Origin: an uncultured Acidobacteriota bacterium
Lineage (GTDB): Bacteria > Acidobacteriota > Thermoanaerobaculia > Gp7-AA8
NCBI GenBank assembly: GCA_963821585.1
Contig: CAWGEI010000005.1
Location: 6,603 to 70,602, forward strand
DNA: 64,000 bases
Direction: 5' to 3'
Shown here one piece after another: positions 5,295-33,580 of this stretch. Every line of letters starts with the position of its first letter. Positions within the stretch are counted from its first letter, which is position 1. The position numbers were made by a program, and so were the translations under genes. The notes below the pieces were generated by a model. It searched no databases. It had not been told where the DNA came from and was given only the letters and a program-made list of their open reading frames with translations.

Positions 5295-6938
5295 ATGTGG
5301 CCCCTTCGCATCGCCGCTGCGCGGCTTCGTCCCTTCAACGCCTCCACGTTCATCCGCACGGGGATCGTGCTGGTCGTCGTCGCGGCGTTCCTCGTCGGCG
5401 ACTACGCGCTGTTTGCGCGGCTCTTCGGCGCGATCGCGGGCGTCGAGTCGGAGACGCCGCTCTTTGCCCTCGGCCTGCTCCGCAACCTGCTCGGGCTGGT
5501 GTTTCTCGTCGCGACGGTGACGCTGTTGTCCTCCGCGATGGCGGCGGCGATCGCGTCGTACTTCACGGACCTCGATCTCGACATCTACCACGCCGGTCCG
5601 CGGTCGAAGCTGCGCATCGCCCTCTCACGGTGGCTGAAGACGCTGGTGCAGAGCGCGACGGTGGTGTTCCTATTTCTCGTGCCGCTGATCGTCGCCTTCG
5701 CGCGCCAGTACGACAAGCCGTTCGCGTTCTATCCCGCCGTGCTGGTGAACCTCGCGCTGCTGCTGACGATCCCGGTGACGCTGGCCTCGATCGTCATCCT
5801 GATGCTCGTGCGCTGGTTTCCGGTGCGACGGGTCTACCAGATCGTGGCGTCGATCGCCGTACTCGTGCTGACGCTGGTCGTGATCGCGTTCCGCATGAGC
5901 CGGCCGGAGCGCTTCTTCGCCGAGCTCTCGACGATTGACGTGGCCGAGGTGCTGCGGGCGATCGAGCTGCCTTCGATGAGCATCTATCCGAGCACGTCGC
6001 TCGCGGAACTGATGACGCGCAGCGATGCAGCGCCGTTCGCGCCGCGCATCGTGCTGATCGCGCTGATCGCGTTCATGGCATTCGCGGTGCTGGCGCGGGC
6101 GTGGTACTTCCGCGCGTTCGTGCGGGCGCGGGAGAGCATGGCGCCGGCGGCGATCGGGGCGTCGTCCGCGACGCGCATCCTGGACCGGCTCTTCGCGCGC
6201 GCGGACCCGCCGCTGCGGGCGATGATCGGCAAGGAAGTGCGCACGATCGGGCGCGACGTCGCGCAGTGGTCGCAGGTGTTCCTCATGGGCGCGCTGCTGT
6301 TCATCTATCTCTACAACATCCGCATGCTGCCGCTGGGCGGCGACGCGCGCGCGACGCTGGTGGCGTACGCGAACCTCGGCATGTCGGGCTTCGTGATCGC
6401 GGCGATCTGCCTGCGTTTCGCGTATCCGTCGGTGTCGGCGGAGGGGAAGGCGTTCTGGCTGATCCAGAGCGCGCCGATCTCGTACCGCGACTTCCTGCTG
6501 GTGAAGGTCGCGGTCTACGCGGCGCCGCTGACGCTGCTCTCGCTGCTGCTCACCGCGTTCGCGAATTTCATCCTCGGCGCGAACGCGGTGGTGTGGACGT
6601 TCACGCTGGCGGGCGCGCTGCTGCTGGCGGTGACGCTGGTGAGCCTGGGCGTGGGCCTCGGCGCGCTCTCGCCGGACTTCAACGCGGAGAATCCGCTGCA
6701 GGTGGGGCTGTCGCTGGGAGGATTCGGCTACATGGCCATTTCGCTCGCGTACGTCGCGGCGGTGATGGTGCTGATGGCCCGTCCGGTGATGAGCTACTTC
6801 CTGCGCGTGGTGGGCGTGGAGCAGGCCGCGATCTCGGCGACGATCCCGATCGTGATTGCGCTCACGTTGTCCGCGCTGCTATCGGTGATATCTCTGCTGG
6901 CAGCGGAACGCCGCCTCACCCGCTTCAAAAGCGATTAG
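5295..6938 (+). CDS. Polytopic membrane protein (10 or more predicted TM helices; ABC-2/'putative ABC exporter'-like)
   Basis: The ORF is open from 5223, but the upstream part reads through the repeat. The ATG at 5295 (MWPLRIAAARL...) is the more likely start. The sequence is hydrophobic throughout. Confidence 0.75.
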   Translation: MWPLRIAAARLRPFNASTFIRTGIVLVVVAAFLVGDYALFARLFGAIAGVESETPLFALGLLRNLLGLVFLVATVTLLSSAMAAAIASYFTDLDLDIYHAGPRSKLRIALSRWLKTLVQSATVVFLFLVPLIVAFARQYDKPFAFYPAVLVNLALLLTIPVTLASIVILMLVRWFPVRRVYQIVASIAVLVLTLVVIAFRMSRPERFFAELSTIDVAEVLRAIELPSMSIYPSTSLAELMTRSDAAPFAPRIVLIALIAFMAFAVLARAWYFRAFVRARESMAPAAIGASSATRILDRLFARADPPLRAMIGKEVRTIGRDVAQWSQVFLMGALLFIYLYNIRMLPLGGDARATLVAYANLGMSGFVIAAICLRFAYPSVSAEGKAFWLIQSAPISYRDFLLVKVAVYAAPLTLLSLLLTAFANFILGANAVVWTFTLAGALLLAVTLVSLGVGLGALSPDFNAENPLQVGLSLGGFGYMAISLAYVAAVMVLMARPVMSYFLRVVGVEQAAISATIPIVIALTLSALLSVISLLAAERRLTRFKSD

Positions 6939-6976
6939 AATCGAACCGCCTGAAGACAATCCGGCAAGGAGAAGAA

Positions 6977-7408
6977 ATGACCGCTATTCCTCCGCCCACG
7001 GTCCCCCCTGTGACTCCTCCGCCACCGGGAGGCGGGTCGTACACTCCGCCGCCCCCACCGCCACCGGGCGGAGTCAGCCCCAGCTCCGACCGGACGCTGA
7101 TGATCGTGCTCTCATACCTCGGCCTGCTCGCTCTGATTCCGTATCTGACGAAGAAGGAAGACGCCGAGATCCACTGGCACGCGAAGAACGGCGTGGGCCT
7201 GCTAATCCTCGATGTGGTGGTCGGGGTCGCCCTGTTCGTCCTCGGCATGATCATCAATCAGGTAGGCATTCCCTGTGGCTCGTTGGCCGTGAGCTGCATC
7301 GTCTGGATCGGCATCCTCGTCCTGCACGTTTACTGCATCACCCAGGCGGTCGGCGGAAAGCGTCCGCGGATCCCGGTCGTGACCGACTTCGCCGAGAAAT
7401 CGCTCTAA
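6977..7408 (+). CDS. Pro-rich N-terminus plus DUF4870-like 3-TM membrane protein
   Basis: ATG at 6977 is preceded by AAGGAGAAG. Sequence: MTAIPPPTVPPVTPPPPGGGSYTPPPPPPPGG...LMIVLSYLGLLALIPYLTKKEDAEIHWHAKNGVGLLIL. It is embedded in the longer spurious ORF 6101..7408. Confidence 0.8.
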   Translation: MTAIPPPTVPPVTPPPPGGGSYTPPPPPPPGGVSPSSDRTLMIVLSYLGLLALIPYLTKKEDAEIHWHAKNGVGLLILDVVVGVALFVLGMIINQVGIPCGSLAVSCIVWIGILVLHVYCITQAVGGKRPRIPVVTDFAEKSL

Positions 7409-7418
7409 GGTAGATCGG

Positions 7419-7739
7419 ATGTCCGACTCCACGCCACCGTCCCCACCACCCGCCCCCGCCGGTCCCGGCGGGGGTGGTCTCGTCTATCCGGCCAATCCGC
7501 CGAAAGACCCGGTTCTGATTCTCATCCTGAACCTAGTCTTCGGAATCGGGTACATCATGATGGGCCAGAAGACGAAAGGGATCGTCGCCATCGGTGCTTT
7601 CTGGGTGGTGACGTTCGCAACGTGCGGCCCGGGGAGCATCATCGCCGCGTTGTATGCGATCGACGGCTACCTGCAAGCGCAGCAGCTCCAGCAGGGACAC
7701 CCGGTCGGCGAGTGGACGTTCTTCAACGACCATCGGTAG
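7419..7739 (+). CDS. Pro-rich N-terminus plus TM2-like small membrane protein
   Basis: 106 aa: MSDSTPPSPPPAPAGPGGGG...LILNLVFGIGYIMMGQKTKGIVAIGAFW...YAIDGYLQAQ. Confidence 0.75.
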   Translation: MSDSTPPSPPPAPAGPGGGGLVYPANPPKDPVLILILNLVFGIGYIMMGQKTKGIVAIGAFWVVTFATCGPGSIIAALYAIDGYLQAQQLQQGHPVGEWTFFNDHR

Positions 7740-7743
7740 TCTT

Positions 7744-7836
7744 TGGAGTGCGGCGACGACTAGTCGCCGCTTTTCAATCTTTGCACGCTGAGCGCTCGAA
7801 GATAGGAAAGCGGCGACTCGCCGTCGCCGCACTCCA
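7744..7836. repeat. Long hairpin between convergent genes (30-nt arms, about 33-nt spacer)
   Basis: TGGAGTGCGGCGACGACTAGTCGCCGCTTT pairs with AAAGCGGCGACTCGCCGTCGCCGCACTCCA (3 mismatches). Each arm is itself self-complementary (GCGGCGAC/GTCGCCGC). Confidence 0.85.
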
Positions 7837-7838
7837 TA

Positions 7839-8204
7839 TCAGAACGGGTACAGCGGCGTGTTCCGCACGATCCAGTAGCTGGTCAGGACGAAGAACGCCG
7901 CCCACGCGAACCAGGGTTGCATGAGGAAGCGGGGCTGGCGACCTCGGAACAGGCTGGGGAGCGCGCACAGGGTCACGGCCAGCAGCAGGAAGAGCATCGG
8001 ATTGAGGCGGAAGGCCTCTTCGACGCGGCCGTGCAGCAGATGATGGAGCGCGCGCGTGGTGCCGCAGCCGGGGCATTCCAAGCCCGTCATCAGCCGGAAG
8101 GGGCATTGGGGGTAGAAGGCGTACGCCGTCGGCGGGAAGGTGAAGAGCACCCACCCACCGACGGCAGCCACGGCCGCGCTAACCGCGATTCGCCTGAGCT
8201 GCAC
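7839..8204 (-). CDS. DUF2752 family membrane protein
   Basis: 121 aa. CPFRLMTGLECPGCGTTRALHHLLHGRVEEAFRLNP is the DUF2752 signature. The gene overlaps the upstream gene by 26 nt. Confidence 0.85.
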   Translation of the reverse strand: MQLRRIAVSAAVAAVGGWVLFTFPPTAYAFYPQCPFRLMTGLECPGCGTTRALHHLLHGRVEEAFRLNPMLFLLLAVTLCALPSLFRGRQPRFLMQPWFAWAAFFVLTSYWIVRNTPLYPF

Positions 8205-8595
8205 TGATTGCCTGCATCATGTTGGCGCCGAAGACGATTCCCCAGATGATCGTGGCGACCAAGCCAACGCCAACGCCGATGAGCAGGAACATCTTCGCCT
8301 TCTGCGACGCTTCCTGCGCGCCGGCGATGTCGCCCTGCGCGAGCTTGGAATTGACCTGCGCGGAGAAGATGATCGCCACGATGCCGAGCGGGAGGCAGCA
8401 GCAGAGCGTGACCACGATCGACTGCCACAGGTAGTTCGGGATGGTCGCGGCGCCGACCGGCGGCGGCGCACCGAAGTTCGACGGCGGCGGGGGAGGCGTA
8501 TACGACGACGGAGCCCCGGCGCTCAGGGAGCGTCCGCAGTTCACGCAGACCGAGGCGTTATCGAGGTTGGACGTACCGCAATTCGGACAGTTCAA
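8179..8595 (-). CDS. Zinc-ribbon + Pro-rich linker + CD225/dispanin-family membrane protein
   Basis: CPNCGTSNLDNASVCVNCG, then PNYLWQSIVVTLCCCLPLGIVAIIFSAQVNSKLAQGDIAGAQEASQKAK. The likely start is TTG at 8595, 6 nt after AAGGAGG. The ORF track extends it to 8694. Confidence 0.85.
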   Translation of the reverse strand: MNCPNCGTSNLDNASVCVNCGRSLSAGAPSSYTPPPPPSNFGAPPPVGAATIPNYLWQSIVVTLCCCLPLGIVAIIFSAQVNSKLAQGDIAGAQEASQKAKMFLLIGVGVGLVATIIWGIVFGANMMQAISAAQANRG

Positions 8596-8606
8596 ACCAT
8601 TCCTCC

Positions 8607-8942
8607 TTATTTCGACGTGGCGATCGAGTATCCGATGAACGCCGCGTACGCGAGACCGATCAGAGCACCGGCACCGAAGGCGATCCAGCACCACATCTTT
8701 GCCTTCTCGGACGCTTCCTGGGCGCCCCCGACGTCACCGGCGTGCAGCTTCGAGTTTACCTGCGCGGCATAGATGATCGCCACGACTCCGAGGGGCATGC
8801 AGCAGCAGAACGCCGTCAGCACTGCCTGCACGAGGTAGTTGTTGATCTGCGGCAGAGGCGGAAAGCGGCGGATGCGCTCGTTGCAGTTCGTGCAGACGGT
8901 GGCGTTGTCGGCGCGGGCCACGCCGCAGCTCGTGCAGAACAT
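8607..8942 (-). CDS. Zinc-ribbon + CD225/dispanin-family membrane protein (paralog)
   Basis: 111 aa: MFCTSCGVARADNATVCTNCN...NNYLVQAVLTAFCCCMPLGVVAIIYAAQVNSKLHAGDVGGAQEASEKAK. Confidence 0.88.
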   Translation of the reverse strand: MFCTSCGVARADNATVCTNCNERIRRFPPLPQINNYLVQAVLTAFCCCMPLGVVAIIYAAQVNSKLHAGDVGGAQEASEKAKMWCWIAFGAGALIGLAYAAFIGYSIATSK

Positions 8943-9529
8943 TACTGTTGCACTCCTTCCGGATACTGCACGAAGGTCCCCGTCGAGAAGACGATGTCGT
9001 TGTCGAAGTCGGTCGTCTTCGTAAACGGCGTGTACTCCTGCAGCGAGTCGTGCTCGAACGTCTTGTCCGCGCCGGCGCTGCCGATCGCATAGGTCTCACA
9101 TGCGCCCGCCGGCCAGCACTCGTAGCGGAACTGTGTCTCCCAGCCGTCGAGCGTGGGGACGGACTTGACGTATTTCGGCACGAGCGCCGAGGAGAGGTCG
9201 CTCACCGACGAGACTTCGGGGTAGTGGTTCTGATCGGTCGAGTAGGCTTCCACCGCCGTCGCGATCGTTCGCATGTCCGCCATCGAACGCTTCTGCTTCG
9301 ACCGGTTGAGCGCCGTCAGGAAGTTCGGGATGGCGATGGCGGCCAGGATGCCAAGGACCGCGACGAGCACCAGTCCTCCGACGATGACGCCGATGATGAT
9401 GCCCGCGCTCTTCGAGCCCTCGCCGCGGGCCACGCGCTGCGAGCCGTTGCTGGGATTGCCGCAACGCGGACACGCCGCGTAGGAAACGTCGGTGACCTGA
9501 TTGCCGCACCAGGCGCAAAACGCCATCAC
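8942..9529 (-). CDS. Zinc-ribbon + TM + type II secretion GspG-like pseudopilin ectodomain; no prepilin cleavage motif
   Basis: 195 aa. CAWCGNQV...CPRCG, then a TM helix ending AAIAIPNFLTALNRSKQKRSMADMRTIATAVEAYSTD...LDGWETQFRY...YAIGSAGADKTFEHD. A G/FTLIE class-III signal is absent. Confidence 0.85.
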   Translation of the reverse strand: MMAFCAWCGNQVTDVSYAACPRCGNPSNGSQRVARGEGSKSAGIIIGVIVGGLVLVAVLGILAAIAIPNFLTALNRSKQKRSMADMRTIATAVEAYSTDQNHYPEVSSVSDLSSALVPKYVKSVPTLDGWETQFRYECWPAGACETYAIGSAGADKTFEHDSLQEYTPFTKTTDFDNDIVFSTGTFVQYPEGVQQ

Positions 9530-9565: not shown

Positions 9566-9648
9566 AACGTAGGGCGTGGCTTCAGCCCGCCTCTCTGGTC
9601 GAAACCCCCGCCCACGAGGGGAGGCGGGCTGAAGCCGCGCCCTACGTT
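9566..9648. repeat. Family-1 inverted-doublet (REPIN-like) element, copy 2
   Basis: AACGTAGGGCGTGGCTTCAGCCCGCC ... GGCGGGCTGAAGCCGCGCCCTACGTT with a 31-nt loop. Confidence 0.9.
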
Positions 9649-9655
9649 TGTGACA

Positions 9656-10204
9656 TCACCACATCATGCCGAGCTGCAGGCGCGCCGCCTCGGACATCAT
9701 GCTGCGATCCCAGACGGGGTCGAACACGACGTCGACTTCGGCGTTCTTCACACCAGGCAGGCTCACGAGCTTGCTCTTCACGTCGCTGGCGAGGACCGGA
9801 CCCATGCCGCAGCCGGGCGCGGTGAGGGTCATCTTGATCTTGACGTTCTTCCCGCCCTCGTCCGACGCCTCCAACTCGCAGAGGTAGACGAGGCCGAGGT
9901 CGACGATGTTCACCGGGATCTCGGGGTCGTAGCAGGTTTTGAGCGCTTCCCAGACCATCTCTTCCAGCTTCTCGGGAGTGAGCTCTTCCGGTTTGACCTC
10001 CGCGGTCTCCAGCGGAGCCTTGCCGATGGCCTCGACTTCAACGCCGGACACCCGGACCATCAGCCCGCGGTCGGTGATCAGCGTGTACGTGCCGCCGAGG
10101 GACTGGGTGATCGTCGCCTGGGCGCCCTTCGGGACGAGGACTTTCTCCCCGCTGGGGATCATGACGGCTTCTGTGTTGCGGCTGAAGGTGATTTCTTCTC
10201 TCAT
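9656..10204 (-). CDS. sufT: SUF Fe-S assembly protein SufT (DUF59/MIP18 domain)
   Basis: 182 aa. CYDPEIPVNIVDLGLVY...LTAPGCGMG is a DUF59 motif. It is the last gene of the suf operon. Confidence 0.85.
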   Translation of the reverse strand: MREEITFSRNTEAVMIPSGEKVLVPKGAQATITQSLGGTYTLITDRGLMVRVSGVEVEAIGKAPLETAEVKPEELTPEKLEEMVWEALKTCYDPEIPVNIVDLGLVYLCELEASDEGGKNVKIKMTLTAPGCGMGPVLASDVKSKLVSLPGVKNAEVDVVFDPVWDRSMMSEAARLQLGMMW

Positions 10205-10220
10205 CGCAGTTCGCTCCCGC

Positions 10221-10670
10221 TCATTCGGTACTCACCTTCTCGTCCCGGCCCTCGAGAGCACTTCGAAGGGTGTGCCAGGCCAGCGTCGCGCACTTGACGC
10301 GGGCAGGAAACTCGCTCACGCCCGAGAACGCCGCCAGGCGGCCGAGGTCCGAGGCGCTGAGACCGCTCGCATCGCCGGTGACCAGACGATGGAACGTATC
10401 GAAGAGGCGCTCGGCTTCCTCTCTGGACTTTCCTTTGATGGTCGAGCTCATCACAGACGCCGACGCCTTCGAAATGGCGCATCCGCTCCCGGTGAAGCTC
10501 ACCTCGGCGATCTTCTCGCCGTCGGTCTTGAGGAAGATCGTGTAGTGATCGCCGCAAAGCGGGTTGTAGCCATCGACACGCGAGGTGGCGTCCGCCATCT
10601 CGTGGAAGTTGCGGGGGTTCTTGTTGTGGTCGAGGATGACCTGCTGGTACAGCTCGCGTAAGTCGGACAT
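10221..10670 (-). CDS. sufU: SUF NifU/IscU-like Fe-S scaffold SufU
   Basis: MSDLRELYQQVILDHNKNPRNFHEM...NPLCGDHYTIFLK...GSGCAISKASAS. Start is at ATG 10670; the ORF track extends to 10715. Confidence 0.88.
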   Translation of the reverse strand: MSDLRELYQQVILDHNKNPRNFHEMADATSRVDGYNPLCGDHYTIFLKTDGEKIAEVSFTGSGCAISKASASVMSSTIKGKSREEAERLFDTFHRLVTGDASGLSASDLGRLAAFSGVSEFPARVKCATLAWHTLRSALEGRDEKVSTE

Positions 10671-10677
10671 TTTAAAT

Positions 10678-11922
10678 TTACCGGAAGACCTCGATGACGT
10701 TGTGCAACGCGGCAACGAGCGCGTCTGCTTCCTCGCGGGTGTTGTAGAGACCGAACGACGCGCGTCCGGTGGCCGGCACGTTGAACCGCATCATCAGCGG
10801 CTGGGCGCAGTGATGGCCGGTGCGCACGGCGATGCCTTCCTGATCGAGGATCGTGCCGATGTCGTGCGGGTGTACGCCTTCGAGCACGAACGAGATCACC
10901 GCCGCCTTCTCCGCGGCCGTGCCGATGATGCGCAGGCCCTCGATCTCGAGCAGGCGATTGGTCGCGTAGACGAGCAGATCGTGCTCGTGCGCGCCGATCG
11001 CGTCGAGTCCGATGGAGTCGACGTACTCCAGCGCCGCGGCCAGGCCGATGACGCCTTCGATGTTCGGCGTGCCCGCCTCGAACTTGTAGGGGAGCGCGTT
11101 GTAGGTCGTCTTCTCGTACGAGACGGAGAGGATCATGTCCCCGCCGCCCTGCCACGGAGGCATGGCCTCGAGCAGCGCCTGGCGTCCGTAGAGCACACCG
11201 ACGCCGGTCGGGCCGTAGACCTTGTGTCCGGAGAACGCGTAGAAGTCAGCGTCGAGGTCCTGGACGTCGACGCGGAGGTGCGGGACGCCCTGCGCGCCGT
11301 CGATCAGCACCACCGAGCCGTTCGCATGCGCGGACGCGACGATGCGCTTCACCGGATTGATGGTGCCGAGGGCGTTCGAGCCGTGGTTGACGGCGACGAG
11401 CTTCACGCGCGGATTGAGCATCCGCTCGAGCTCCTCGACCATCAACTCGCCCGCGTCGTTCACCGGCGCGACGCGGAGCTTGGCGCCCTTCTCCGCGCAG
11501 AGCATCTGCCACGGGACGATGTTCGAGTGGTGCTCGATGGCGGTGATGATGATCTCGTCGCCTTCGCGGACGTTCGTGCGCCCCCACGTCTGGGCGACGA
11601 GGTTGATGGCCTCGGTCGTCCCGCGCGTGAAGACGACTTCCTTGATGTCCCTGGCGTTGATGAAGCGCTGCACGACGCCGCGCGCGTTCTCGAACTCGAT
11701 CGTGGAGATCTCGGAGAGGTAGTGGACGCCGCGGTGGACGTTCGAGTTCTCCTGCGTGTAGTAGCGCACGATGCGGTCGATGACCGCCTGCGGCTTCTGC
11801 GTCGTGGCGGCGTTGTCGAGGTAGACCAGGCGCTTGCCGCGGGCGGCGCGGGCGAGGATCGGAAAGTCGCGTCGGATGCGGTTGACGTCGTAGGTGGTGA
11901 GGACTTCGGCGACGCTCATCAT
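10678..11922 (-). CDS. sufS: Cysteine desulfurase SufS
   Basis: MMSVAEVLTTYDVNRIRRDFPILA...YLDNAATTQKP...FSGHKVYGPTGVGVLYG...RTGHHCAQP. The ATG overlaps the sufD stop (ATGA). Confidence 0.93.
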   Translation of the reverse strand: MMSVAEVLTTYDVNRIRRDFPILARAARGKRLVYLDNAATTQKPQAVIDRIVRYYTQENSNVHRGVHYLSEISTIEFENARGVVQRFINARDIKEVVFTRGTTEAINLVAQTWGRTNVREGDEIIITAIEHHSNIVPWQMLCAEKGAKLRVAPVNDAGELMVEELERMLNPRVKLVAVNHGSNALGTINPVKRIVASAHANGSVVLIDGAQGVPHLRVDVQDLDADFYAFSGHKVYGPTGVGVLYGRQALLEAMPPWQGGGDMILSVSYEKTTYNALPYKFEAGTPNIEGVIGLAAALEYVDSIGLDAIGAHEHDLLVYATNRLLEIEGLRIIGTAAEKAAVISFVLEGVHPHDIGTILDQEGIAVRTGHHCAQPLMMRFNVPATGRASFGLYNTREEADALVAALHNVIEVFR

Positions 11923-13090
11923 GCTTCTCCTATCCGCTCCGGCAGGCGCTGCGGGAGCGACTGGAAGAGCGCCCGGCGGATCTGCTCGCGCACGGGCTCG
12001 ATCTTCATACGGTCCACGAGCTCGCTGGCGAAGGCGTAGACGAGGAGGTTGCGGGCCTCTTCTTCGCCGATGCCGCGCGAGCGCAGGTAAAACAGCGGCT
12101 CCGGCTCGATCTGTCCGATGGTCGAGCCGTGGTTGCACTTGACGTCGTCGTTGTGGATCTCGAGGGTCGGCTTGGAGTCGACCACCGCGGTCTCGCTGAG
12201 CAGGAGATTGCGGTTCACCTGGCGCGAGACGGTCTTCTGCGCGTCGGGACGGACGATGATCTTGCCGTCGAACACGCCGCGCGCGTTCCCGTCGAGGATG
12301 CCCTTGTAAAGCTCGAAGCTCTCGCAGTGCGGCTTGATGTGGTCGATGACCGTGCGGTTGTCGAGATGCTGCGTGCCGGCGCCGACGAAGAGGCCGTCGA
12401 GGACGATGGACGCGCCTTCGCCCGCGAGGGCGACATGAATCTCGGTGCGTGCGATTGCGCCGCCGAGGAGGATGTTGTGCGAGGTGACGTTCGCCGCGCG
12501 CTCCTGGCGGATGAAGATGTTGCCGACGTGGAAGGCCTCGCGCGATTCGCACTCGACCTTGTAGTGGTCCACGACCGCGCTCTCGTCCGCGACGATCTCG
12601 GTGACGGAGTTGGTGAAGTACTTCCCAGAGCCGATGTACGTCTCGACGATCGTCACCTGCGCGTTGCGGCCCACGACGATCGTGTTGCGCGGGTGCGACC
12701 AGATGCCATCACCGCGACCGACGAAGATGAGGTGAATGAAGCCGTCGACGACCTTGCCGTCCGGGATGACGATTTGCGCGCCGTCCTGCTGGTTCGCGGT
12801 GTTGAGCGCGACGAGGGCGTTGCGCTCCCAGTCGGCGATATGGATTTCCGAGTCGCCGCGGTAGGGGTTTTCACCGGAGACGAAGCGGCCGTTGACAAAG
12901 ACGAGCTCCATCGACGCGTGTCCCGCGTGGGAGATTGGGGGATCAACAGCGATGGGCGAGTCATCCACGCGCCAGGCGATCTTCTGCAGCGGCGCGAGGT
13001 TGGTGTAGCGCCACTCCTCGATGCGCGGCGTCGGCCACCCGAGTTTTGCGAATCGCTCGGCGGCCTCGGATCGAAGGTCGGTGACGACGC

Positions 13091-13094
<4 letters not shown>
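11919..13094 (-). CDS. sufD: Fe-S cluster assembly protein SufD
   Basis: 391 aa with a SufB/SufD beta-helix C-terminal region (VDSKPTLEIHNDDVKCNHGSTIGQI...LFYLRSRGI). Confidence 0.9.
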
Positions 13095-13840
<746 letters not shown>

Positions 13841-13863
13841 TTGTTTCCTTTGGCTCAGTTGCT

Positions 13864-13929
13864 ATTCACCACAGAGAGCACAGAGATCACGGAGAGCTCT
13901 CTGTGGTCTCTGTGCCCTCTGTGGTGAAT
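13864..13929. repeat. 66-bp near-perfect palindrome between sufB and sufC (arms built from 9-nt CACAGAGNN sub-repeats)
   Basis: ATTCACCACAGAGAGCACAGAGATCACGGAGAG | CTCTCTGTGGTCTCTGTGCCCTCTGTGGTGAAT. The 33-nt arms have 3 mismatches and no spacer. Confidence 0.9.
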
Positions 13930-13935
13930 CGGTCC

Positions 13936-15368
<1,433 letters not shown>

Positions 15369-15372
<4 letters not shown>

Positions 15373-15827
15373 GAGGCCACCAGTCGTTGCTTGTCGATCA
15401 CGGGGATCGGCATTCCGCCACGCACGAGATCGTCGAGCGTGACCTGTTCAAAAGCTCCTTTGACTGCCCGGTTGATGCCGAACATGAACCGCCGGGACGG
15501 GCAGGCCACGCGGATCGCGCAGGTCGCCTCGCCGTGGTCGTCGAAGGTCTCGCACTCGGTGAGGTCCCATGGCCCCTCGAAGATCTCGATGAGGTGGCCG
15601 AGGGTAACGACCTCGGGGTTGCCGTCGAAGGAGTAGCCGCCCCCGACGCCCCGGTGCGAATGGATCACCGCGCCGTGGTTGAGAGTCTTCAGTACCTTGG
15701 TCACCGCCGGCAGGGGCAGGTGGTAGAACTCGGCAATCTCGCGCGCGGAGGTCACCTCTCCCGCACGGCGGGCGAGGTAAACAACGGCAAGAAGGCCGTA
15801 ATCGGTGAGTCTGGAGATCTTCAACAT
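15369..15827 (-). CDS. Rrf2-family transcriptional regulator (IscR/SufR-like), first gene of the suf operon
   Basis: 152 aa. [20 protein letters not shown]...HRGVGGGY, followed by a Cys cluster (C..C.....C). Confidence 0.88.
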
Positions 15828-19706: not shown

Positions 19707-20947
19707 GCCGCCCAGCCGTCGTCCTCCTGCTCTGCTGCACGCTCCTCGCGTGCCGCGAGGACGCGCCTCCTCCCGCCGCCGCCAAAGCACCCGCGCCGCC
19801 CGCGCGCATCGCGGCGACGCCGGACAATGACTCCGACAACTCGTTGAATCTCATGTACGGCGCCGCGGTCGTCTCCCGCACCGGCGAGCTGCACCTCGAA
19901 AACTCTGCCGTCCACACGATCGACGGGTTCGCCGAGACCATCTGGATGTCCGCGCCCGGCGTGCCGGAAGAGATGCTGGTCTATTCGATGCTCGCGCCCA
20001 CGCGCCTGCAGCGCGTCGGCATCAGCACCCACAGCGGCGACGACGCGGTGGACAGCGTCGCCTTCGCCGCGTCGATGGACGGGAAGACGTGGACGGATCT
20101 CGGCACGCTGAAAGCCACGCGCACGGACGAGCGGCAGTTCCTGGACGTGAAGCCGACCGTCGCGCACTACCTCCGCGTCCGCACGATCGATCCCGCGGGG
20201 CGCTACTACGTCCGCCTGCGCGGTGTCCACGCGATCGGCGAGGAGGTAGCGGCGCCGAAGACACCGTCGTTCAGCGGCTGCTGGATGATCAACGGGGAGC
20301 GCGCGCACCTGGAGCAGCACGGTGCGCGCATCACGGGCGTGATCGAGAGCGATCCGCCGGCGTACATCGACGGCGGCACGGACAACCGCGCGGGGATGAT
20401 CATGTGGATGCGCGGTCTGACGTGGGGCTACGCGGTGATCACGCGCTCGCCTAACGGAGAGCATCTCTCGGGGTTGAGCTTCTTCGAGGAAGTAGACAAG
20501 AACATCGGCGAGGGGTGGTTCGGGGAGAGATGTAACGTAGGGCGTGGCTTCAGCCCGCCCTCCCCGGGGGCGGGCGGGCTGAAGCCACGCCCTACGTTGT
20601 TCTTCGCTCGCGCGAAGCGGTATTCGCTGTACGGGCTGGTCTTCGATGCGAACGACCGGCTCGTCGAGGAAGTGAGCGAACCGACGCTCGATGTCCTGGC
20701 CTCGCTGATCGCCTCTGCGTCGCAGCCGATGCGGCTCGTCGCGCGCGAGCTGCGCTACACCCCCGAGCAGAACCGGCAGCACGCGGCGGCGCGGCTGCAG
20801 GCGATCCGCGCCGCACTCGAACGGCGCGGGGTGAACCTCTCCCGGATCGAGTTCGTCAACGCGGGCGGCGACACCGGCGGAATCGTCCTCCGCTCTTCCC
20901 TTCAGCGAGCGCTCCTCAGCCGCGTCGACCTCGTTTCTGGGACATAA
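19703..20947 (+). CDS. Lipoprotein with a discoidin (F5/8 type C)-like domain and a degenerate OmpA-like C-terminal domain; carries an in-frame family-1 repeat
   Basis: GTG at 19703 overlaps the glyS stop. Lipobox LLAC is present. ...[38 protein letters not shown] is discoidin-like. The frame stays open through the repeat ([23 protein letters not shown]). Confidence 0.75.
20534..20598. repeat. Family-1 inverted-doublet (REPIN-like) element, copy 3, located inside the CDS
   Basis: AACGTAGGGCGTGGCTTCAGCCCGCC ctccccgggggcg GGCGGGCTGAAGCCACGCCCTACGTT. Confidence 0.9.
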
Positions 20948-24884: not shown

Positions 24885-24945
24885 AACGTAGGGCGTGGCT
24901 TCAGCCCACCTTTTTGGACGGCACGCTGTAGCCACGCCCTACATT
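24885..24945. repeat. Family-1 element, copy 4 (degenerate right arm)
   Basis: AACGTAGGGCGTGGCTTCAGCCCACC ... GCTGTAGCCACGCCCTACATT. The inner part of the right arm is missing. Confidence 0.7.
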
Positions 24946-29701: not shown

Positions 29702-29890
29702 CTGTCGCCCGCTACGCGGGCTCGTTCCCAGCGACCGCGCTATTCCCCCGGCTGAAGCCGGGGTCTATTTTCTGTAGCCCGCTACGCGGGCAGAATTTGC
29801 CGCCGTAGGCGGCGACAGAAAATAGCCTCCGGCTTCAGCCGGAGGACTGCGACGGGTTGGGGTTGCGAGCCCGCGTATGCGGGCGGCAGA
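29702..29890. repeat. Family-2 nested composite palindrome, copy C
   Basis: CTGTCGCCCGCTACGCGGGCTCGTTCC ... CCCCCGGCTGAAGCCGGGGTCTATTTTCT ... GCCCGCTACGCGGGC / GCCGCCGTAGGCGGC ... AATAGCCTCCGGCTTCAGCCGGAGG ... CGAGCCCGCGTATGCGGGCGGCAGAG. Confidence 0.9.
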
Positions 29891-32683: not shown

Positions 32684-33523
32684 TTGAAGGAACCAACCAA
32701 AATCCGCATCGGCCCGGCGGGCTGGAGCTACAAAGATTGGGAAGGCGTCGTCTACCCGTCGCACGGTTCGAAGTTCGACGCACTCGGCTATCTCGCGCAG
32801 TTTTTCGACACCATCGAGATCAACTCGCCGTTCTATCGCATCCCTCCGCCGACACACTCGAAGAGCTGGGTGAAGCGCGTCGCCGTGAACGACAATTTCA
32901 AGTTCACGACGAAGATCTATCGCGGCTTCACGCACGAGACCGAGGCGCTGTCGAAGGATGACGTGCAGGCGTTCCGCAACTACCTCGACCCTCTCATGGA
33001 AGCCGACCGCCTCGGCGCGATCCTCATCCAGTTCCCGTGGAGCTTCAAGAACACGCCCGAGTCCCGCGCGAAGCTCGTCAAGCTCTTCGGCGCCTTCAAG
33101 GACTACCCGCAGTCCCTCGAAGTACGGCACTCGACGTTCCAGGTGCCGGAGCTCTACGAGCTCCTGGACGAGCACGACGTCGCCTGGGTGAACGTCGACC
33201 AGCCGCTGTTCAGCGACTCCGTGAAGCCGGCGGACACGGTGACCGGTCCCGTCGCGTACGCGCGCTTCCACGGACGCAACTACGAGAAGTGGTTCGCGCA
33301 CGACGAATCGTGGGAGCGCTACAACTATCTCTACTCCGAGCGGGAGCTCGCGCCGTGGGTCGAGCGCATCGAGCGGATGGCGAAGAAGCGCGACACGTAC
33401 GTGATCACCAACAACCACTTCCGCGGCCAGGCCATCCTGAACGCGGGCGACCTCAAGGAGTCGCTGGGCCAGGACGCAACGCTGCCTCCGCAGTTGAAGG
33501 AGGCCTACCCCGACCGGACGTAG
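32684..33523 (+). CDS. DUF72 (UPF0759/YecE-like) protein
   Basis: 279 aa. IRIGPAGWSYKDWEGVVYP...FDTIEINSPFYR is the DUF72 signature. The start is TTG. The stop TAG lies inside the family-1 repeat. Confidence 0.88.
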   Translation: MKEPTKIRIGPAGWSYKDWEGVVYPSHGSKFDALGYLAQFFDTIEINSPFYRIPPPTHSKSWVKRVAVNDNFKFTTKIYRGFTHETEALSKDDVQAFRNYLDPLMEADRLGAILIQFPWSFKNTPESRAKLVKLFGAFKDYPQSLEVRHSTFQVPELYELLDEHDVAWVNVDQPLFSDSVKPADTVTGPVAYARFHGRNYEKWFAHDESWERYNYLYSERELAPWVERIERMAKKRDTYVITNNHFRGQAILNAGDLKESLGQDATLPPQLKEAYPDRT

Positions 33524-33580
33524 GGCGTGGCTTTAGCCCGCCTCCCCCGGGGGAGGCGGGCTAAAGCCACGCCCTACGTT
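33518..33580. repeat. Family-1 inverted-doublet (REPIN-like) element, copy 5, with a compensatory arm substitution
   Basis: ACGTAGGGCGTGGCTTTAGCCCGCC tcccccggggga GGCGGGCTAAAGCCACGCCCTACGTT. Confidence 0.9.

Follow-up and report, generated by a model that had tools for sequence, protein, structure and literature searches.

Gene and domain layout

The DNA analyzed here is a 64,000-nucleotide stretch ('the window') of contig CAWGEI010000005.1 from an uncultured Acidobacteriota bacterium of the Thermoanaerobaculia lineage (assembly GCA_963821585.1). At 8942..9526 on the minus strand, it carries a gene encoding a four-cysteine zinc-ribbon-like segment, a single transmembrane (TM) helix and a pilin-type head in one polypeptide. 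An initial annotation, made from the sequence, had described an open reading frame (ORF) with a Cys4 N-terminus and a pilin-type body at this position. That observation is confirmed by the ORF call, a GGAG ahead of the start codon and 119 full-length orthologs, which share the layout. The frame closes with TAA (8944-8942), and a program-made ORF list opens it at GTG 9529, directly ahead of an ATG at 9526. Because a Shine–Dalgarno-like GGAG sits 6 nt 5' of this ATG and the majority of orthologs open with MAFCAWCG, ATG 9526 is almost certainly the true start, so that the protein begins MAF rather than MMAF; counted from there, it has 194 residues. An internal GTG start at Val32 (M-ARGEGSKSAG-IIIG) was rejected, the four-cysteine segment upstream of it being invariant at the protein level.

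Four segments can be distinguished along the chain. Residues 1–28 (9443..9526, minus strand) form a four-cysteine zinc-ribbon knuckle, MAFCAWCGNQVTDVSYAACPRCGNPSNG, recognized by its invariant cysteines and predicted β-hairpins. A Gly/Ser/Lys-rich linker (residues 29–41; 9404..9442, minus) varies in length and sequence across the alignments A1 and A3 and was modelled with a pLDDT of 59. Next comes a single hydrophobic helix (residues 42–68; 9323..9403, minus), homologous to the pilin α1-N according to alignments with PilA, PulG and geopilin, which contains a G46-x3-G50-G51 motif and has GILAAIAIPN at its end. The remainder (residues 69–194; 8945..9322, minus) is a GspG/PulG-type pilin head, as delineated by Pfam T2SSG, Foldseek and a profile alignment to PulG (PDB code 5wda). 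Its elements are α1-C (KQKRSMADMR...EAY), the α–β loop, a DGW strand, Cys137 and Cys143, the S-x-G-x-D and FD-x-D-IVF motifs and a YPEG tail; D127, W129 and D177 are invariant, and S150, G152 and D154 nearly so.

The zinc-ribbon motif noted at the N-terminus in the initial annotation is present as CxxC-x11-CxxC. All four cysteines (C4, C7, C19 and C22) are invariant in the 119 orthologs, which are 56–89% identical, as is G28; the Pro and Asn of the P-x-N-G that follows are invariant in a set of 31 sequences. Since the cysteines persist unchanged down to 56% identity, the sequence comparison indicates that the ribbon is translated, functional and under selection. The AF2 model predicts the β-hairpins of the knuckle with a pLDDT of 84–87. 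The zinc-ribbon models of Pfam (Zn_Ribbon_1, PF13240, and DZR, PF12773, type) stay below threshold, Zn_Ribbon_1 reaching 16.7 bits against 25 and a second model 18.5 against 27.3. The motif suggests that the knuckle binds zinc, and iron is also conceivable. The terms 'metal-binding', 'cytoplasmic' and 'permanently anchored', with which the protein had first been described, are attributes that we infer. A zinc-binding anti-sigma factor (zf-HC2 type) was rejected as an identity for the N-terminus, since zf-HC2 gave no match at E ≤ 1 and no histidine precedes the first CxxC as it would in H-x3-C-x2-C. No sigma-factor families occur in the Pfam lists of the genes called at two orthologous loci (L001 and L003).

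Pilin head, prepilin signal and wider family

The resemblance of the protein to pilins is, by sequence scores, far above chance. Pfam T2SSG (PF08334) matches residues 70–157 with 30.9 bits (cutoff 21; E 3.1e-7), and the GspG equivalog model TIGR01710 scores 46.9 bits, under its curated cutoff of 88.85. A phmmer search of the PDB with the single sequence gave PilA of Myxococcus xanthus (E 1.4e-8), PulG (5wda; 7e-5) and geopilins, and a profile of the 119 orthologs reached 5e-12 for PilA (8tj2), the top sequence match in the PDB, and 1.2e-10 for PulG residues 6–120. An AF2 model built on the 119-sequence alignment, which replaced a single-sequence run with a pLDDT of only 49, has a mean pLDDT of 89.7 and shows two short β-hairpins within residues 2–25, an unbroken helix from 37 to 99 and a five-stranded head. 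The top Foldseek hits of this model in the PDB are the major pseudopilins EpsG/GspG of the type II secretion system (T2SS) (4lw9, 3gn9 and 3fu1), with a probability of 1.00, target TM-scores of 0.61–0.65 and an r.m.s.d. of 3.7 Å over about 120 columns; lower matches are other type IV pilins, including TcpA and PilA1. In the predicted structure the pilin fold, a long N-terminal α-helix on an antiparallel β-sheet, is present, which bears out the T2SS-pseudopilin-like fold proposed at the outset, as does the T2SSG score above threshold. Asp154 (S-x-G-x-D) and Asp177 (FD-x-D) are kept across the wider family, and the Asp154 loop aligns with the G-P-D-G loop of PulG. These positions seem to correspond to those at which GspG binds Ca2+, and a GspG-like Ca2+ loop in the head is plausible. 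At least 90% of the 31 orthologs in alignment A1 have the cysteine pair of the head, which probably forms one disulfide.

The hallmarks of pilin processing are missing. A type IV pilin or pseudopilin is defined by its class III signal peptide and by a glutamate at position 5 of the mature protein, and the pilin fold is generally seen as a unit from which filaments are built. The window protein gave no match at E ≤ 1 to N_methyl (PF07963), a Pfam model on which canonical relatives reach 40–43 bits. Alignments to mature pilins begin at pilin position 4–6 and pair Glu5 with Gly, Phe1 with Gly and Gly-1 with Ile. Among the 119 orthologs, position -1 is Ile, Val or Leu in 118, position +1 is Gly in 106, and position +5 is Gly in 113 and acidic (Asp or Glu) in none; a charged residue occurs within the hydrophobic helix in a single ortholog. 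The place of the Phe1/Glu5 signature is held in the orthologs by G-x3-G-G, a classic helix–helix packing motif. A scan of the window in six frames for G-[FMLIVY]-[TS]-[LMI]-[IVLT]-E found nothing. Both the class III signal peptide and the glutamate at mature position +5 are absent on this sequence evidence, in agreement with the initial annotation, which had seen neither a Gly-1/Phe+1/Glu+5 prepilin peptidase site nor an alternative start that would uncover a G/FTLIE signal.

Related proteins are numerous. A search of a large database returned 1585 proteins at E ≤ 0.001, and its top 120 matches, apart from one partial entry, are 187–207 residues long and align over 97–100% of the query, with CxxC...CxxC in each. 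When 1.84 billion representatives at 50% identity were searched with a profile, 354 matches fell below 1e-30 and 5016 below 1e-10. Among the 150 best of these representatives, a four-cysteine motif stands at the N-terminus in 74, so that the window protein is no isolated case, and a canonical K/R-G|FTLIELLIV prepilin leader is found in 14. The family thus sampled appears to be large and undescribed, and its members are labelled 'GspG' in databases. Full-text literature searches, whose coverage is incomplete so that unpublished status is unproven, returned no description of the zinc-ribbon–pilin architecture.

Other members of the wider family place the head in different surroundings. In P0137, P0147 and P0151 it is preceded by a zinc ribbon and a multi-TM module of about 120 residues. 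This module, which also lies between ribbon and pilin helix in L012, L014 and L024, is conserved, with the motif …RPG-[VIL]-[VI]-T-[VL]-LA-[VI]-L…G-x-GLW-[KR]-L-[KR]…G-R…, and has no Pfam match. Two metagenomic proteins of 583–588 residues (P0190 and P0205) consist of a ParA/MinD-type P-loop ATPase, three hydrophobic segments and then the head; it would be unusual for a cytoplasmic ATPase to be joined to a periplasmic pilin fold in this way. TPR repeats follow the head in P0227, P0254 and P0265, and an extra C-terminal domain does so in P0136 and P0150. Four metagenomic proteins of 454–868 residues (P0132, P0138, P0140 and P0174) have two to four tandem heads behind Sec-type signal peptides and lack α1-N; P0132 reaches 105 bits on T2SSG in three matched stretches, and all four look secreted or lipoprotein-like. 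Because of the Sec-signal tandem, ParA-like, TPR and canonical-leader architectures, the head is taken from these sequences to be extracytoplasmic and able to work without a filament. Kyte–Doolittle segment counting over-split the long pilin helix and was relied on only for the ParA-like fusions, where the three segments are clear. A neighbor-joining tree of 145 head domains (without support values) is star-like with the architectures interleaved, and the Zn-ribbon forms do not appear to be a single clean clade.

Scanning one genome per species with a degenerate pattern found 219 relatives. The best 80 of these, from which the taxonomy was taken, are almost all Acidobacteriota (Thermoanaerobaculia, Holophagae, Aminicenantes, Terriglobia and Polarisedimenticolia), and most are canonical prepilins that are 31–51% identical to the window protein over helix and head. 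The closest canonical relatives (among them P0173, P0213 and genes at L018 and L038) are 40–51% identical, and α1-C (GILAAIAIPNLLTAMQRSKQKRTMADMR) is almost the same in the window protein and in canonical prepilins of its own class, Thermoanaerobaculia. At L038 (133-10876) a pilT-like ATPase, a pilS-like histidine kinase and an unresolved ORF come before the canonical prepilin, in that order, and a Wzy_C/TPR protein comes after it; the last, of 1464 residues, may be a pilin glycosylase. At L018 the canonical prepilin adjoins a T2SSE ATPase gene, which is convergent with it, and a Zn_ribbon_4 protein is also found there. Since the closest canonical relatives have a normal prepilin leader and adjoin type IV pilus-type genes in these two contexts, the best description of the ancestor, on sequence grounds, is a PilA-like type IV pilin of Acidobacteriota that bore a T2SSG-type head, and not specifically a T2SS pseudopilin. 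The GspG-like assignment first proposed holds for the fold of the head and is to be refined as regards descent.

Operon and genomic neighborhood

By sequence analysis, the pilin-head gene opens a tight operon of four genes, all of them for membrane proteins with Cys motifs. Its stop codon overlaps the ATG of the next gene (TAATG, 8944-8940), which lies at 8607..8942 (minus) and encodes a 111-residue zinc-ribbon–CD225/dispanin protein (CD225 86.8 bits, Zn_Ribbon_1 21.3 bits). A second zinc-ribbon–CD225 gene follows at 8179..8616 (minus; 90.8 and 30.1 bits, respectively). Its start is uncertain, the ORF list giving GTG 8694 and a 138-residue homolog at L001 (70% identical) implying a start at about 8595-8616. 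Both CD225 genes have the N-terminal zinc-ribbon module in common with the pilin-head gene. The fourth gene, at 7839..8204 (minus), encodes a DUF2752 membrane protein (71.9 bits) with a CP...CPGCG motif. A sequence scan located a terminator-like GC hairpin with a T-run at 7810..7830 (minus), the likely 3' end of the operon. Neither the four operon proteins nor the TM2-like neighbor described below matched a defence system in a PADLOC scan.

The order sufU-sufT-ZnR-pilin-CD225(x1-2)-DUF2752, with a TM2-like gene on the opposite strand, recurs at nine of nine orthologous loci (L001–L008 and L010) and persists down to 48–51% identity. At these loci the gap between the pilin and CD225 genes is 0 to about 15 nt, and that between sufT and the pilin gene ranges from 27 bp to more than 1.3 kb. 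Taken together, these sequence data are suggestive of a linkage of the pilin gene to CD225 and DUF2752 within this orthologous group only. The linkage may in part represent inherited gene order, because the broader neighborhood is also syntenic.

Directly upstream of the pilin-head gene and on the same strand lies a complete suf-type Fe–S assembly operon (Rrf2 regulator, sufB, sufC, sufD, sufS, sufU and sufT; 9656-15827, minus), identified by ORF sizes, Pfam matches of SufT and synteny with L001 and L003. Between the sufT stop (9656) and the start of the pilin-like gene lies a palindrome (9566..9648, assigned to no strand) whose arms are 28 nt long. It is a copy of a dispersed repetitive extragenic palindromic (REP)-like element and may serve to insulate the suf transcript or to end it. 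The element is found at 1742-1794, 9566-9648, 20540-20592, 24891-24912 and 33523-33574. Its arm, GGGCGTGGCTTCAGCCCGCCTC, is usually found in intergenic DNA as an inverted pair with a spacing of about 10–30 nt; the window has nine matches to it with at most three mismatches, against none expected from shuffling.

Two genes for small membrane proteins face the operon. That at 6740-7408 (+) is DUF4870/MamF_MmsF-like, with 23.8 bits falling just under the cutoff, and that at 7419-7739 (+) is TM2-like, with a weak 14.9 bits; both products have Pro/Gly-rich N-termini. Because the positions of both genes are conserved in L001–L010, the locus may be regarded from its sequence as an island of small membrane proteins. 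Farther away, at 29798-29845 (-), lies a match to the Rfam small-RNA motif Acido-Lenti-1 (38.9 bits against a gathering score of 37), which fits the assignment to Acidobacteriota. No machinery of type IV filaments is listed within 10 kb on either side of the gene in L001 and L003. Within the window, searches for a T2SSE ATPase, a PilS-like kinase and another pilin head were negative; they did not extend to prepilin peptidase, platform protein or secretin.

Interpretation and comparison with known systems

We favor, with confidence somewhat above even, the reading that the gene encodes an uncleaved, non-polymerizing, membrane-anchored pilin-fold protein. The protein would be a bitopic inner-membrane descendant of an acidobacterial type IV pilin that has departed from the filament pathway. 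Its short basic leader and Gly-1/Phe+1/Glu+5 signature would have been exchanged for a four-cysteine knuckle of about 28 residues, a flexible linker and an uncharged GxxxGG helix. Insertion would be N-in/C-out as for pilins, leaving the GspG-type head on the periplasmic face and the zinc ribbon in the cytoplasm; this orientation is suggested by the homology to prepilins, the ParA-like and Sec-signal architectures and the conserved cysteine pair of the head. Without a prepilin-peptidase site no trimming would take place, as the lack of a conserved Gly-1 leads us to expect. In the docking model of pilus assembly, incoming body and base subunits need Glu5 and only a GspK-like tip subunit can lack it. 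Polymerization is not expected because Glu5 is absent and because an uncleaved extension of about 45 residues could hardly be buried in a filament core, and the tip, body and base of a filament would all be barred to the protein. What would remain is a static module, tethered to the membrane, that serves for binding or as a scaffold in the periplasm; its zinc ribbon and glycine-rich helix would be the likely sites of partner contacts. The likeliest partners would be the translationally coupled zinc-ribbon–CD225 proteins and the DUF2752 protein encoded directly downstream. These are probably the partners, a part of the reading in which we have much less confidence than in the anchored, uncleaved and non-polymerizing core. 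Topology, metal binding, non-cleavage, non-polymerization and a complex with the neighbors are all properties that we infer from the sequence. With these qualifications, the interpretation given in the initial annotation, a permanently anchored pilin-fold ectodomain with a metal-binding cytoplasmic head, is supported overall.

Several observations weigh against this reading. The linkage to CD225 and DUF2752 is seen in one orthologous group only, in a wider neighborhood (glyQS, suf, ddl, mlaD and maf) that is syntenic too, and five Zn-ribbon–pilin genes of other subfamilies stand as orphans in unrelated surroundings, with neither CD225 nor DUF2752 beside them. The charges flanking the helix are about +4 on each side, the same as in the canonical pilins of the family, so that charge does not decide its orientation, and the counts of hydrophobic segments gave no firm TM parity for the variants with a zinc ribbon and a multi-TM module. 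The near-identity of α1-C to that of canonical prepilins could mean that an interaction with pilins or the pilus machinery has been retained. A glycine stands four residues ahead of the aligned cleavage position in 80 of the 119 orthologs, and atypical cleavage is conceivable. The case as a whole is built on sequences and models.

The observation on α1-C is the starting point of a different explanation, which we judge to be improbable: that the protein is a membrane-locked mimic of a pilin, docking on the platform of a type IV pilus or on the pilin pool so as to cap, anchor or throttle assembly or to report pilin levels through its zinc ribbon. The 40–51% identity of the head to canonical prepilins of the same phylum would fit such a role, as would the close match of α1-C to the prepilins of Thermoanaerobaculia and the position of the canonical relatives beside a PilT-like ATPase and a PilS-like kinase, or a T2SSE ATPase. 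However, the 20-kb contexts of L001 and L003 contain no pilus gene, and neither a T2SSE ATPase nor a PilS-like kinase nor another pilin head lies in the window. The Glu5 that the docking model asks of an incoming subunit is missing, and the occurrence of the head in secreted tandem repeats and behind unrelated cytoplasmic modules speaks for a function independent of filaments.

The upstream glycine bears on another alternative, that the protein is still a prepilin whose zinc ribbon serves as a long leader, cut at the Gly of K-[ST]-A-G by prepilin peptidase or another protease before assembly. Type IVb prepilins do have long leaders, and a glycine precedes the helix both in the window protein (…KSAG/IIIG) and in the 80 orthologs mentioned. 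This glycine is, however, replaced by Ala, Leu, Val, Met, Thr or Ser in 38 of the 119 and lies three residues out of register with the pilin alignment; position +5 is never acidic, and the divergent Zn-ribbon members listed lack any motif resembling a cleavage site. The invariance of C4, C7, C19, C22 and G28 points to a functional domain and not to a disposable leader. We consider this alternative very unlikely.

We give equally little credence to the proposal that the Cys4 knuckles bind iron in the manner of rubredoxin and that the four-gene cluster is tied to suf, its products being, for instance, membrane clients or sensors of Fe–S clusters or iron. In the window and at nine of nine orthologous loci, the cluster does follow sufU-sufT directly and in the same orientation, all four genes have N-terminal Cys motifs, and a weak match to an NCBIfam rubrerythrin-like domain (E 0.0086, below cutoff) was found. 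Yet the distance to sufT varies between 27 bp and more than 1.3 kb and includes the REP-like palindrome in the window, and adjacency is weak evidence because the whole region is syntenic. The other Zn-ribbon–pilin subfamilies do not lie near suf, and the motif fits the generic Zn_Ribbon_1/DZR models. An artefact (a miscalled start, a frameshifted pseudogene or an assembly chimera) has practically no probability; no observation speaks for it, and it is refuted by the invariant cysteines and by 119 independent full-length orthologs of 187–207 residues, drawn from many assemblies and sources, that share the layout, in addition to the GGAG ahead of the ATG and a confident AF2 prediction for both parts.

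A broader extension of the favored reading, that of an anchored pilin-fold protein outside the filament pathway, is put forward tentatively, and we doubt that it holds in full. In it, the pilin head in Acidobacteriota would be a filament-free periplasmic receptor or scaffold, wired to interchangeable modules (a zinc ribbon with or without a multi-TM module, a ParA-like ATPase or TPRs) and also exported as tandem repeats. At the present locus it would belong to a dedicated inner-membrane complex with the CD225/dispanin and DUF2752 proteins, perhaps tuned to suf. Such a complex, if real, would be a first lead to what bacterial dispanins do, and the tight coupling of the pilin-head gene to the zinc-ribbon–CD225 and DUF2752 genes offers a testable entry to the function of the dispanin family. 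More generally, a conserved family that keeps the fold and has its signal swapped for a zinc ribbon or other modules would imply that evolution has put the pilin fold to a second use, as a static periplasmic domain. The family comprises at least 74 clusters at 50% identity within the 150 best matches and more than 119 close orthologs, and would represent a widespread and clear exception to prevailing views on the making and the role of pilin-fold proteins. Annotation pipelines name such proteins 'type II secretion system protein GspG', a label that can suggest roles in secretion or piliation that they probably do not have and that may mislead inference from metagenome-assembled genomes of Acidobacteriota.

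Comparison with the T2SS pseudopilins GspG, PulG and EpsG reveals a common head fold (4lw9, 3gn9 and 3fu1), an alignment that extends over PulG residues 6–120 and the shared motifs AIPN...EAY...D-x-W...S-x-G-x-D. The window protein differs from them in lacking the class III signal and Glu5, in its N-terminal zinc ribbon, in about 20 additional residues between S-G-x-D and FD-x-D and in having no gsp genes nearby. With the PilA-like type of Myxococcus and the Acidobacteriota (N_methyl plus T2SSG) it shares the helix, the head and the near-identical α1-C. The PilA-like proteins, however, carry K/R-G|FTLIELLIV and PF07963, both of which the window protein lacks, and their genes adjoin PilT-like and PilS-like genes or a T2SSE ATPase in the two contexts described, whereas the window gene does not. 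GspK-type minor pseudopilins also combine a pilin fold with the absence of the glutamate at +5, yet they keep the prepilin leader, are cleaved and sit at the filament tip; the uncleaved N-terminal extension of 45 residues predicted here could not be accommodated inside the core of a filament. Because the class III signal and Glu5 are lacking and the TIGR01710 cutoff is failed, the sequence suggests that the protein should be filed neither as a pilin nor as GspG. It also resembles bitopic PF13240-type proteins, such as those of the TcaA architecture and the neighboring zinc-ribbon–CD225 proteins, in combining a short, presumably cytoplasmic CxxC...CxxC knuckle, a single TM helix and an extracytoplasmic domain, and differs from them in that its extracytoplasmic part is a pilin head and its TM helix is homologous to the α1-N of pilins.

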